DNA of 64,000 nt from Eledone cirrhosa (lineage: Eukaryota). This document shows positions 8,800-13,320 of this stretch, piece by piece. The stretch covers positions 3,472,001-3,536,000 of the forward strand of contig OZ024756.1 in NCBI GenBank assembly GCA_964016885.1. Reading direction: 5' to 3'. The notes under the pieces are model-generated. The model did not search any database. It was not told the DNA's origin and worked only from the letters and a program-made list of their open reading frames with translations. Every line of letters starts with the position of its first letter. Within the stretch, counting starts at the first letter, position 1. Both the position numbers and the translations under genes were made by a program.

Positions 8800-9480
8800 A
8801 CACATACACCAATTAAACAAAGTCACAGGTATATATGTGTTTTGGCAACTATTCACGATGTGACTCAATGAAGAATTAATAAATTAAATAATCAGAGGAA
8901 AATACTATCGAATAAAGCATGTCTAGAGAATTATTTGATAATATATATACATCATCTCTACTCCCAATCAGCATAATTAACCACACAAAAAATCAATTAG
9001 ACCAGGCTATAAGAATAACAGGCACCTATGAAGAAACAGTAAATAAATACGCCACAGCAGCGTCTTGGCGTCCAACCGTTATAGAATATTTACCCAACAT
9101 TTCAACAGCACGTGGATATTAATTAAATATACGGTCAACCATACATAGTTAGGTAAAAATTAATGTTAGAAATGCTTATATACATACCAGGATTAAATCA
9201 CTAAATCCCAACCCATGGGTTTCGCTCACTTTTGAGGTACCTTATTAAGGATGAATCTCGAGTTTAGAGCTCTTCAGGGGACAAACTCGCTAGGACATAT
9301 TATTTTCCGAAATTGCCGCCGCCAGACACGAATTTAAAATGGTTGAGAACTGTGACGTGCCAGTGGTCAAATCAGGAAGGGTGTGATTGGTTGTTTACGT
9401 TGCTTACGAGTAGAGATGATGTATATATATTATCAAATAATTCTCTGGACATGCTTTACTCTATAGTATTTTGCTCTGGT
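8800..9480 (-). mobile_element. Probable PLE pLTR remnant carrying the hammerhead, between TA-rich tracts
   Basis: Contains the hammerhead at 9205-9282. A CCAAT box (GATTGG at ~9385) lies upstream on the minus strand. The segment is flanked by (TA)n. Boundaries are approximate. Confidence 0.55.
9205..9282 (-). ncRNA. Type I hammerhead ribozyme motif (PLE/retrozyme-type)
   Basis: Minus strand: gUCCC-CUGAAGA-GCUC-[39 nt]-GAGC-GAAA-CCCAUGGG-UU^-GGGAu. Core is complete, stem II is GCUC/GAGC, stem I is UCCC/GGGA, and stem III is the palindrome ACCCATGGGT. Confidence 0.85.
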
Positions 9481-9487
9481 TATTTAA

Positions 9488-9622
9488 TATGTATATATAT
9501 ATATATATGTATATATATATATGTATATATCTATATATATATATATATATATATATATATATATATATATATATATATATATATATATGTGTGTGTGTGT
9601 ATATATATATGTATATATATAT
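9488..9622. repeat. (TA)n/(TG)n microsatellite
   Basis: Direct reading. Confidence 0.97.
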
Positions 9623-10372
9623 TCGTTACTTATGTGATGGATGTATAAACTATAAATTACTTTCCCTGAATGTGAAAATGGTGGTGGATACGAAAACCAT
9701 AACTTTCTTTTGCTTCTCCTTTTTATTTTTATTTTTCTGCACACATACTTTTTTTAATTATATACAACAAATACCTTACCAATACAACCTCCATAATACT
9801 CTTACTTACCCGCTTAAAGTGTTCGTATTACATGTAATACCCTGCCACACAATAATCATATATAAATGAGACACACGTGCATGCCCCACGTGTAAATAAG
9901 GCATACACTAACTACTACATCTGACTAACAAACTATCCTCTTGCATTATCTATGTTAACTGTCGAATGTATTTTAATTTTGTTTTAATTTTGAATTTAAA
10001 TTGCTATACAGAAATAACATAGTATTATATCTGTCACTCCACTGTACATCAATGTATAAATATGTATCTGTATGTCTCTTGCGTTGGAAAGGAGGTCAAT
10101 TATGTGTACAAACATTGAAAAATGCTCTGAAGACAGCAAGCCAAGGTTTGGATGAAACAATTGTAAGTGAATAAATGCTTTGAACATAGCTTTGATTCTT
10201 GTGAATTCTATATAACTGCTCTGTAGAACAACTGATGTTATTACATTGAGCTATTTATCTTACTGGTAATAAGGTAGTAATAAATTACTGTCTTTCACTA
10301 TTTAGGGTTTAAAATATATATAACTATAAAAAGTTTTAGTATATACATAACCATAAATAGTATCCTTAATAT

Positions 10373-11391
10373 TATATATATATATATATATATATATATA
10401 TATATATATATATATATATATAAATATATGTATATATATATATATATATATATATATATATATATATATATATATATATATATATATATAAATATATGTA
10501 TATATATATATATATATATATATATATATATATATATATATATATATATATATATATATGTATATATAAATATATGTATATATATATATATATATATATA
10601 TATATATATATATATATAAATATATGTATATATATATATATATATATATATATATATATATATATATATATATATATATATAAATATATGTATATATATA
10701 TATATATATATATATATATATATATATAAATATATGTATATATATATATATATATGTATATATAAATATATATATATATATATATATATATATAAATATA
10801 TATATATATATATATATATATATATATATATATATAAATATATGTATATATATATATATATATATGTATATATAAATATATATATATATATATATATATA
10901 TATGTATATATAAATATATATATATATATGTATATATAAATATATGTATATATATGTATATATAAATATATGTATATATATATATATATATATATATATA
11001 TATATATGTATATATAAATATATGTATATATATATATATATATATATATATATATATATATATATATATATGTATATATATAAATATATGTATTTATAGA
11101 TATAGATATATAAATATATGTATATATATATATATATATATATATATATTTATATATACATATATATATATATATATTTATATATACATATATATATATA
11201 CATATATATATATATATATATATATATATATATATATATATATATATATATATATAAATATATATATGTATATATAAATATATGTATATATATATATATA
11301 TATATATAAATATGAAACTTCTAGTCGTGTAGAAGCTCTTCTATATTAATTGTATATATATATATATATATATATATATATATATATATAT
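10373..11391. repeat. ~1-kb (TA)n tract punctuated by recurring TAAATATATG units
   Basis: Direct reading. Confidence 0.98.
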
Positions 11392-11690
11392 CGTTTCATT
11401 TTTTCCGTTTATCGTTTTCAGTGCACCCGGCCGATTAACCCACTCGATATGCAAATTGGACTACTCAGCCGTTAATATGCATAAGGTAAGTATATACGTT
11501 CAACAATCTGGCAGGAAGGTATACGTTGCTGACGATAGCTAACAAGCTTGAAACTAGTACAGCGTTCCTTTGTCAGTGTTGAACAAACGAGCAACGGTGG
11601 TTGCTAGACACTACGGCTTAATACGGGATGTTTGTTTACAAACACACCGAGCATTATAATAAATGTTCGGTGAATCCATACGTGCATATA
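11392..11690 (+). mobile_element. Solo PLE pLTR / retrozyme-like unit between (TA)n tracts
   Basis: ~300-bp complex island flanked by TA repeats. It contains a donor-like AAG|GTAAGT (11486), the hammerhead (11523-11565) and AATAAA (~11658). Confidence 0.7.
11523..11565 (+). ncRNA. Minimal type I hammerhead ribozyme motif
   Basis: ACGUUG-CUGACGA-U-AGCU-AACA-AGCU-U-GAAA-CUAG-UA^-CAGCGU. Stem I is ACGUUG/CAGCGU and stem III is the palindrome ACTAGT. Predicted cleavage is after 11559. Confidence 0.87.
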
Positions 11691-12409
11691 TATATGTGTG
11701 CATGTATGTATATATATATACATACTACTGTACGTCGGTATACATATATGTATGTACGTGTACATACTTATATATATATATATATATATATATATATATA
11801 TACAGTATTTTCCGTTGTGTTGTAATATAAATATTACACACAGTAAATTATCAGCTCACGTAGAGTTTTCTCGACGGTTCCAGTTCTAGTTCCAAAAGTA
11901 ATCCGGAGAAAAATAGAAAGATTTGAATGGATACAGTTTAGTTGAAAGGAATTTATTGACACGTGTTTCTATAACAGTTACATAACCTAAAACAGCTGCT
12001 ATCTACAAACTTTTAGTTATGCAGACATTCAATATTTCAATGTTATTATTTACTGTCATTTCATCAGAATAATATTACTGAGGACCTATTTAGTTTTTAT
12101 AGAGAATATTAGGAGGGAGGGGTGAAGTTGTTAGAAGAATAGTTGAAGAAACTGTTGAATAACAGAATTGAACGAACATTATTCTGCCGTCACAGAACTA
12201 AAACCCTTTTTTCCCACTACAAGCCGAATATTACATAAAAGAGGGACATCCCCCAACTATATAAACCTTAATCTAGTTAGAAAAATATAAAAACAATCTC
12301 TTCTCAACATATATTAATAACCTTAAATTACCACACTAATAATGGAAAGATATGCTGATGAGAATAGGTGCAAATATGCGATAATGAATGTGTCTAAAAA
12401 CGTCCATAA

Positions 12410-12905
12410 GTATGTATATATATGTGAAAATGTATATAAATAAGTAAATATATATATATGTTTGATGTGTATAGTTAGATGTAAGTGTATTCATGTATTA
12501 AAGTGCTTATATATATGTATATATATATGTATATATATATGTGTATGTATGTGTATATATGTATATATATATATATATATATATATATATATATATATAT
12601 ATATATATATATATATATATGTATATATATGTATATGTATGTATATATGTGTATATAGATGTGTATGTATGTGTATGTGTGTACACATGGACTAGAGTAA
12701 GTATGTATATATGTGTGTGTCTATACGTGTGTATATAAAGATAAGTTGAGTATGAAAATGTATACACATGAGCGCGTAAGTATGTACATGAATACATGTG
12801 TGTATATATATGTGTATGCATGTGTATATATATGTAAGTATGAATATGTGAATTGTGAGTATATGTATTTTGTAGAGGTGTGCAAATATATTTGTGTGTG
12901 AATGC
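12410..12905. repeat. (TA)n/(TG)n low-complexity tract inside the PLE remnant
   Basis: Direct reading. Confidence 0.95.
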
Positions 12906-13200
12906 GTGGGTGAAAGGATTCGTACACTTGAAAGAAAAATTTAAGTCTGAATGTTAATTAAGTGCAAACACAAAACCAACCACGCATATCTTTACTATCT
13001 CTAATCCTTCTATAGATTTAGAAAAATAACCAATAATATATTCTATAAAAAATGTCAAAACAACAGATGGGAATCTAATTACTCACTGCCACCAAGAATT
13101 CTCACTGCTATCGAAAAACCACTCCTTCAACTATTCTTCTAACAACTTCACCCCTCCCTCCTAATATTCTCTATAAAAACTAAATAGGTCCTCAGTAATA

Positions 13201-13320
13201 TTATTCTGATGAAATGACAGTAAATAATAACATTGAAATATTGAATGTCTGCATAACTAAAAGTTTGTAGATAGCAGCTGTTTTAGGTTATGTAACTGTT
13301 ACAGAAACACGTGTCAATAA
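13201..13320 (+). ncRNA. Type I hammerhead-like motif with a ~91-nt stem II domain (inverted twin at ~11953-12072 on the minus strand)
   Basis: UUAUU-CUGAUGA-aaUGACAGU-[...]-ACUGUUAca-GAAA-CACGUG-UC^-AAUAA. Stem I is UUAUU/AAUAA and stem III is the palindrome ACACGTGT. The stem II closing pair is non-canonical. Confidence 0.72.

Follow-up and report, generated by a model that had tools for sequence, protein, structure and literature searches.

Minimal type I hammerhead ribozymes have been described in the pseudo-long terminal repeats (pLTRs) of Penelope-like elements (PLEs), where a type I core is combined with a short stem I and a palindromic 15.2-16.2/loop 3 region, and where the motifs occur once per unit, in many families per genome, mostly in single truncated copies and in opposite-strand pairs (Cervera & de la Pena 2014, PMC4209133). 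Hammerheads are also found in animal non-LTR retrozymes, which are low-GC tandem units without an open reading frame (ORF) that carry one hammerhead each and range from monomers to long arrays (Cervera & de la Pena 2020, PMC7229834; Li, Clavereau & Pollet 2026, bioRxiv 10.64898/2026.07.22.740005); their mobilization by PLEs has already been proposed on grounds other than those given below (Cervera 2020; Li 2026). Type-SGC hammerheads (HRIMA-1 and variants) are known from metatranscriptome and metagenome contigs (Eckert et al. 2023, PMC10085705). The features of the PLE and retrozyme hammerheads recur in a 64,000-nt stretch of the genome of Eledone cirrhosa (assembly GCA_964016885.1, contig OZ024756.1, positions 3,472,001 to 3,536,000; "the window"), in which the initial annotation had placed three self-cleaving hammerheads between positions 9205 and 13320.

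These three motifs are real and of a known kind, namely type I hammerheads. The interpretation given to them was largely right but ordinary in kind, and is partly supported overall. The novelty lies in a family about 4 kb outside the reported span (F6), whose cutting is predicted from its sequence.

Insertions in a (TA)n microsatellite

The stretch is most probably a pile of insertions in one (TA)n microsatellite, formed by truncated ends of PLEs (families F3, F4, and F5) and by ORF-less tandem units (F1, F2, and F6) for which an enzyme of this kind likely served as the copying machinery in trans. All of them carry a hammerhead predicted to cut their RNA into unit lengths. From 8.75 to 13.42 kb, the units are arranged as TA, F1, TA, F4, TA, F2, TA, F3 (inverted arm and main arm), TA; F5 and F6 follow at 17 to 18 kb.

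8755 to 8797, 9487 to 9622, 11769 to 11802, and 13358 to 13415: (TA)n runs
8782 to 9402, minus strand: main arm of an F1 retrozyme unit (0.9 of a 688-bp ORF-less tandem unit; 94.5% identity to a tandem copy)
9205 to 9282, minus strand: F1 type I hammerhead with a G-C-closed stem II and the stem III ACCCATGGGT; predicted cut after 9210
9388 to 9488, plus strand: F1 inverted arm, ending about 19 nt beyond the usual short 3′ end of the family
9623 to 10369, plus strand: F4, the 5′-truncated 3′ untranslated region (UTR)/pLTR of a second Hydra-type PLE, with the long 3′ end
10123 to 10169, plus strand: F4 hammerhead with ACAATTGT; in this copy, stem II is damaged and the core is CTGAAGA, compared to CCGAAGA (U4C) in the family
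10369 to 11391, no strand: 1-kb (TA)n-type microsatellite between F4 and F2
11388 to 11776, plus strand: F2 retrozyme unit with the short 3′ end, covering 0.92 of an ORF-less tandem unit of 422 bp (98.5% identity to array units)
11523 to 11565, plus strand: F2 minimal type I hammerhead with ACTAGT and the triplet GUA; predicted cut after 11559
11803 to 12148, minus strand: F3 inverted arm; it contains the twin hammerhead, whose cut is predicted after 11958, and a tail of about 110 nt (long 3′ end)
12145 to 13360, plus strand: F3 main arm with the last 30 or so codons (stop codon ends at 12238), 3′ UTR, and pLTR; short 3′ end
13201 to 13320, plus strand: F3 type I hammerhead with ACACGTGT, GUC, and a stem II hairpin of 91 nt; predicted cut after 13315
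17114 to 17277, plus strand: F5, part of the pLTR of a third Hydra-type PLE; its type I hammerhead, with ATGCGCAT and AUA, is located at 17175 to 17245
17347 to 17513, minus strand: F6 inverted arm with a core-intact hammerhead in S-G-C order (17348 to 17465) and a split stem II; predicted cut after 17408
17515 to 18216, plus strand: F6 main arm (1.1 units); a remnant at its 5′ end has only the C block, and another S-G-C motif, which carries C3U, lies at about 18059 to 18170

The reported motifs and the minus-strand twin of one of them are exactly the four matches that a type I descriptor returns in the entire window, with core-to-triplet spans at 9210–9277 (minus), 11529–11559 (plus), 13206–13315 (plus), and, for the twin, 11958–12067 (minus). 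A looser scan adds the motifs of F4 (10127–10165) and F5 (17183–17237); two one-mismatch matches, both in low-complexity DNA, were discarded. The proposed minimum of three families is correct, yet it missed both F4, which lies within the reported span, and F5. The motifs of F1 to F5 all have the core elements CUGANGA, GAAA, and UH in C-G-S order and stems I, II, and III, with the caveats that F4 carries U4C as a family trait and that 10.1-11.1 is unpaired in F2 to F4. Stems I and II are paired as claimed, but stem II opens with a mismatch beside the core in F2 (U.U) and F3 (A.A), which is present also in the majority of each family. Each motif has its own palindromic stem III (ACCCATGGGT in F1, ACTAGT in F2, and ACACGTGT in F3), each unit sits between (TA)n runs, and F1, F2, and F3 share no detectable similarity beyond AT-rich patches of 24–25 nt, all in agreement with the initial annotation. 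The three cleavage triplets it listed (GUU, GUA, and GUC) are indeed those read here, but GUU reflects the decay of a single F1 copy (C17U), because 45 of the 48 exact genomic matches of F1 have GUC. Exact patterns of F2 and F3 are found 24,001 and 3,001 times in the genome; controls gave no match for any of the three. The attribution of the motifs to PLE pLTRs and retrozymes is supported, as is their insertion into (TA)n.

The insertions of all six families bear a common signature. Two fixed 3′ ends adjoining (TA)n characterize each family; they are about 112 (F1), 61 (F2), 113 (F3), 160 (F4), 96 (F5), and 45 nt (F6) apart, and the junctions into (TA)n read TAT(AT) at both start sites. The two sites account for 37/43 (F1), 55/70 (F2), 52/53 (F3), and 66/73 (F4) of the 3′ ends, counts that are not unbiased because the loci used for end mapping were mostly top-scoring matches and not a random sample. 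Complete inverted pairs combine one short and one long end in 65 of 66 cases (9/9 F1, 9/9 F2, 15/15 F3, 14/14 F4, 8/9 F5, and 10/10 F6); this count leaves out three F1 pairs, seven F2 pairs, and five F4 pairs with an atypical or interrupted end, as well as one F6 reference artefact. The F1 pair in the window, whose main arm ends at the long 3′ end of the family in (TA)n, is among the pairs left out on account of its extended short arm. The short ends of F5 were scored 15 nt beyond the anchor, as their alignment continues into the TA repeat. At all eight ends with known continuation, the element overlaps the (TA)n target by 3–7 alternating TA bases, suggesting how (TA)n targeting works in the Hydra-type clade.

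Judged by its sequence, the F3 copy in the window is a 5′-truncated, inverted copy of a young autonomous PLE with features of the Hydra clade. An intact unit elsewhere in the genome measures 3,631 bp, encodes a 773-aa ORF, and has the order hammerhead, short end, long end, ATG; an open frame of 785 aa is common to 35 of 84 scored copies. Sequence searches of the protein against Pfam and PDB gave no match and a profile search returned one weak match to a retron reverse transcriptase (RT; E 0.011), but it has 434 relatives at E<1e-30, and the best Foldseek matches of its structural model (pLDDT 89.7) are telomerase RTs (E 9e-10). Of 61 homologues, 4 each match RVT_1 and GIY-YIG, and a minority of the Atlas neighbours carry GIY-YIG/RVT_1. 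F3 combines the single ORF of a PLE, with a telomerase-like RT and a GIY-YIG endonuclease (EN), with partial tandems (pLTR), 5′ truncation, an inverted arm, and a tail at one end, the last a known trait of PLEs. Its assignment to the Hydra clade is based on diagnostic features of the published clade definition rather than on placement in an RT tree: KADKT, CNCTYPDNC, a single Cys within the GIY-YIG core, no CCHH, insertion into (TA)n, and a hammerhead. F4 and F5 sit behind related EN ORFs (32–44% identical). A Neptune-type ORF beside one F4 copy (L124) was rejected as that of F4; it belongs to a separate insertion, and the ORF of F4 is of the Hydra type. Another young Hydra-type family was encountered elsewhere (L171–L190), with 150 scored copies at 96–100%, frames of up to 928 aa, and a hammerhead with a U3-A8 core swap and the palindrome ACGTACGT.

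By contrast, F1, F2, and F6 are ORF-less tandem units a few hundred base pairs long with one hammerhead per unit, as in non-LTR retrozymes; their motifs run on into the next unit, and the source loci consist of such units. Most copies of this type are dispersed, 5′-truncated, and 0.5–2.5 units long. A PLE EN ORF is located upstream of the motif in 0/25 (F1), 2/46 (F2), and 0/89 (F6) cases, compared to 7/19 (F3), 6/56 (F4), and 3/32 (F5). Both F2 cases represent one locus, where F2 lies behind the TA-joined end of another element; the Hydra EN upstream of this copy (L098/L156) was rejected as a parent of F2, since it belongs to a separate family with its own U3-A8 hammerhead. The claim that the families are invisible to ORF-based annotation needs amending for F3, since it represents the pLTR of an autonomous element whose ORF can be seen at other genomic sites. 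That the ORF-less units obey the same rule of two sites, tail, and inversion provides evidence that they are copied by PLE enzymes and is direct genomic support for the proposed mobilization of animal retrozymes by PLEs. It also names a testable pair, the young intact Hydra-type enzyme and F2 RNA with its mapped start sites.

The proposed mechanism starts from sources that are observed to be tandem or partial-tandem units with one hammerhead each. Each motif would cut the read-through RNA; F2 to F5 would need a partner of their own family to form stem III, F1 could perhaps do so alone, and F6 would use its intramolecular stem III of 5 bp. Circularized or multimeric unit RNA would then yield copies that exceed one unit. 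Copying begins at two fixed internal sites 45–160 nt apart, as the genomic ends attest; the GIY-YIG domain would nick (TA)n, and the nicked end would pair over 3–7 nt with the start sites. Priming of both target ends, one per site, would generate the inversions with one short and one long end that are observed. Each insertion leaves (TA)n on both sides, which would likely serve as new targets and explain the nesting.

Several points weigh against this interpretation. Minimal PLE hammerheads are weak even as dimers (PMC4209133), eight of nine Xenopus dimers did not cleave (Li 2026), and hammerhead mutants of an Anolis PLE showed no reduction of insertion in vitro, with no RNA reads ending at the site (PMC11167929); in print, the activity of such motifs is protein-dependent (PMC11167929). 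The Anolis PLE primes without target homology (PMC11167929), in contrast to the TAT overlap seen here. F1, F2, and F6 may be mobilized by any of several PLE families, and Naiad and Neptune elements likewise use (TA)n.

A hammerhead motif in S-G-C order

The ORF-less unit of F6 is about 630 bp long (500–640 bp across the family), has the same ends and inversion pattern as the other families, and contains no type I motif. In the 5′ part, a GUCC strand is followed by a hairpin, a UCGCA strand, a CCAACC strand, and GGUAU-H with a stem I strand; the 3′ part comprises, again from 5′ to 3′, UUAA, UGCGA-N-GAAA-UACC, GGUUGG, and a stem I strand leading into CUGAUGA-N-GGAC. The strand after CUGAUGA-N has its pairing partner in the upstream GUCC, that before N-GAAA in a different upstream strand. 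Stem II consists of a single pair (10.1-11.1), after which comes a junction into which two helices are inserted; the chain ends lie in one of these. Pseudoknot-free folding recovers only the nested helices, each of them in four to six of seven sequences.

The fold is well supported by covariation. In 31 aligned copies, 94.6% of the cells are paired and 17 of 35 pairs are doubly changed, whereas slid controls pair at 24–47%; related sequences inflate these scores, and the outer helix is wrongly aligned in the three rows from one subfamily. When 84 motifs were parsed without the core letters, each core position was kept in 79–84 of them, with A or C at H17. An out-of-sample set of 20 loci, chosen by their G and C blocks only, contained four copies truncated within the motif and one misfit; among the remaining 15, stem III has 5/5 pairs in 13 and stem I 6/6 pairs in 12, with new compensatory pairs. 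Here, H17 is always A or C, and 10.1-11.1 is paired in 12 (U-A, A-U, or G.U). The distal stem II helix is the part that covaries least. Genome-wide, S+G and G+C patterns yielded 12,792 and 19,199 matches (controls, 0 and 1), and a 400-kb genome sample contained three F6 motifs (0.05 per shuffle).

F6 has the core bases, the S-G-C order, and the covarying stems I and III of type-SGC hammerheads but lacks their contiguous stem II directly after CUGANGA; because its stem II is interrupted, F6 is SGC-like and not a member of the type in the published sense. A type II or III hammerhead formed across tandem units was considered and rejected, because the cyclic block order is the reverse of that in types I to III and the partners lie within about 110 nt. 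An Rfam search returned nothing for F6, and among metagenome contigs, the pattern had a single match, in bacterial-looking coding DNA without an S block. No description of such an animal hammerhead was found in the open literature, to which the search was confined, or by a search of the Eckert 2023 supplement. We consider it fairly probable that F6 is an active, undescribed hammerhead in non-circular S-G-C order, pseudoknotted, with a one-pair stem II leading to a four-way junction in which the chain ends are held; it would cut as a monomer and would have spread to about 20,000 copies as a retrozyme that makes use of Penelope-like machinery. If so, it would provide the first case of a non-circularly permuted ribozyme from an animal genome, amid roughly one hammerhead per 12–16 kb, would extend the topologies of the best-studied ribozyme, and would break the rule that CUGANGA and stem II are inseparable. 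Because F6 is missed by standard descriptors and Rfam, such motifs may hide in other animal genomes.

Conservation, amplification, and genomic setting

The conservation of the motifs is consistent with selection on the source copies. The core is more conserved than the other columns, as the initial annotation had expected for genuine ribozymes: variants shared by at least three copies occur in 1 of 55 core columns but in 40 of 398 others (p 0.045), whereas rare variants are about equally frequent in the core and elsewhere (0.8% and 1.0%). A core avoided by shared but not by rare variants fits selection on source copies followed by neutral decay after insertion; the locus itself probably contains inert remnants. 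The cores of the three reported families are conserved across source lineages. Stem I of F2 covaries, with one pair found as U.G, C-G, A-U, and G.U; F3 is too young to be informative. Self-cleavage of F1 to F5 is predicted. It is nevertheless conceivable, if unlikely, that the folds have been retained as protein-binding or RNA-folding signals and have lost a useful cutting rate. The basal stem II mismatch of F2, F3, and F4, the U4C change in the core of F4, and the low or absent activity of relatives in vitro (PMC4209133, PMC11167929, Li 2026) would agree with such a loss, but the catalytic positions are all held in at least six unrelated families of two topologies, and the variation follows known tolerances (N7, A or C at H17, and the U3-A8 swap in a further family).

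The suggestion of the initial annotation that the palindromes allow the motifs to work as dimers fits F2 to F5, in which stem III is predicted to add no stability to the monomer. The palindromes are predicted to pair with their own family only (homoduplexes, −4.8 to −10.5 kcal/mol; heteroduplexes, −3.5 kcal/mol or weaker). Every motif at the locus is single on its strand, and the twin of F3 is inverted, so that no tandem dimer exists in cis. A strict dependence on dimers is doubtful for F1: a fold with a stem III of 3 bp is the minimum-energy monomer hammerhead of the family form (the GUU copy of the window is predicted to over-pair), and the centre of stem III (AT in 23, TA in 13, TT in 8, and AA in 4 of the 48 copies) is non-complementary in 12 copies, compared to about 23 expected if both bases were independent. 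Folding models indicate that F1 can fold as a monomer and may manage without a partner.

Arrays of F2 reach 16 motifs; contigs of sequencing runs compared with an F2 array indicate its presence only. In the longest of these (L161–L162; G000:C2:276.04 Mb), units 5–8 are an exact repeat of units 1–4, and this higher-order repeat may stem from a multimeric circle template or from local duplication. Because a DNA-level duplication explains it as well as an RNA circle does, the repeat also tempers the case for copying by PLE enzymes. Together with the existence of long, near-identical arrays and a DNA-level route proposed for Xenopus retrozymes (Li 2026), it would be in line with F1, F2, and F6 being orphan pLTRs of PLEs that are amplified as minisatellites by unequal crossing-over, with RNA copying playing a minor role. 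This we regard as improbable: the copies are mostly dispersed and 5′-truncated, have two fixed ends in (TA)n and inversions that join a short to a long end, and no parent ORF was found upstream of the F1, F2, and F6 motifs examined; even the 16-motif array begins at a truncation and finishes near the short end.

Motifs of this kind are common in the 3.0-Gb genome. Forty evenly spaced stretches of 10 kb (400 kb) contain 25 strict motifs, with none in 10 shuffles; at least one is present in 16 stretches and three in two of them, which contradicts the view that the zone around the locus is a special target. If no palindrome is required, the sample yields 35 motifs, compared to 1.25 per shuffle. 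The extrapolated total is about 190,000–250,000 (Poisson range of the strict count, about 120,000–280,000), or one per 12–16 kb. With five motifs in 4.1 kb, the locus is nevertheless enriched, which matches its fourfold higher (TA)n content (20%, compared to 4.7% in the sample); the site is not unique. Although the region has a GC content of 12–31% and the stems are short, chance matches in AT-rich, repetitive DNA can be dismissed, since the four strict matches in the window stand against a mean of 0.01 over 200 block dinucleotide shuffles of positions 1–20800 (none with a palindromic stem III), the excess in the 400-kb sample and the palindromic share (24/35 real but 5/25 shuffled matches) point the same way, and both conservation and covariation are family-wide. 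At the scale of the window, an Rfam search misses the motifs and gives only microsatellite-driven miRNA noise; for F1 alone, it gives a weak match to HH9 (E 0.32). Loci L216–L255 contain more hammerhead families with other palindromes, including odd-length ones (ACCACTGGT and ACCGCCGGT), and a 528-bp tandem unit at L231.

The remainder of the window is rich in repeats and long (TA)n runs up to position 20788, from which a 52-bp satellite (831 copies, 94% matches, strong C/A skew) extends to 64000. A 43-bp island within a (TA)n run (11312–11354), whose 31-nt pieces match at several other loci, is likely the extreme 3′ end of one more TA-targeting family. Positions 1–1330 (minus strand) hold the fragment of a broken RT from a different type of PLE (YVDD-type motif, judged by eye); before it, near 1280–1320, is a decayed sequence that resembles a hammerhead and includes the ACACGTGT palindrome. 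An inverted multicopy element at 3120–3330, with relatives in L243, L138, L089, and L156, has CUGAU(N)GA followed by a GUC...GAC hairpin and no adjacent GAAA palindrome; it may represent another variant of the hammerhead. A short repeat that is very common, with occurrences in up to 28 of the 40 sampled stretches, occupies 1400–1620, 2900–3050, 7550–7680, 8150–8620, and 15200–15420 and is probably a short interspersed nuclear element. A near-perfect hairpin element of about 220 bp at 7100–7320 resembles miniature inverted-repeat transposable elements.

Comparison with known systems

The PLE hammerheads of PMC4209133 differ from F2, F3, and F4, which lack the G10.1-C11.1 pair and have a symmetric mismatch instead, from F3 in its 91-nt stem II, and from F4 in its U4C change. 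The number of motifs extrapolated here exceeds the published counts of about 9,000 in Xenopus, 5,000 in mussel, and 120,000 in axolotl. For Octopus vulgaris, the parts of the repeat paper that were consulted list Penelope families and yielded no mention of ribozymes.

F3 agrees with the C-terminal EN+ PLEs of the Hydra clade (Craig et al. 2021, bioRxiv 2021.04.23.441226) in its single ORF with DKT, a CxCX5C linker, and, at the C terminus, a GIY-YIG domain without CCHH, and also in its pLTR hammerhead, insertion into (TA)n, inverted 5′-truncated arm, and tail at one end. However, its unit of 3.63 kb is longer than is general for that clade (<3 kb), the tails of F3 to F5 measure 96–160 nt rather than the 30–40 bp described for PLEs, and F3 is present in thousands of young copies. 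The Poseidon PLE of Anolis (Frangieh et al. 2024, PMC11167929) likewise has two internal RT start sites that set the tail, and both target strands are cut and extended; its start sites have been demonstrated in vitro, whereas those reported here are read from genomic ends.

In comparison with other animal retrozymes, F1 (688 bp) and F6 (500–640 bp) are at the long end of the size range. The link of F1, F2, and F6 to PLEs is drawn from the anatomy of the insertions (two start sites, tail, inversion, and TA junction) and not from co-occurrence or pLTR phylogeny, and this anatomy was not found in the parts of PMC7229834 and Li 2026 considered here. With the type-SGC hammerheads of PMC10085705, F6 shares the block order, the core bases, a short linker between stems I and II, and an additional helix by which the strand 5′ of stem I is connected with stem II at its far strand. 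In that account, insertions of more than 1–2 nt between CUGANGA and stem II are not known. Whereas the published representatives come from environmental contigs and have a contiguous stem II, F6 is a mobile repeat of an animal genome with about 19,000 copies and a stem II that is split.

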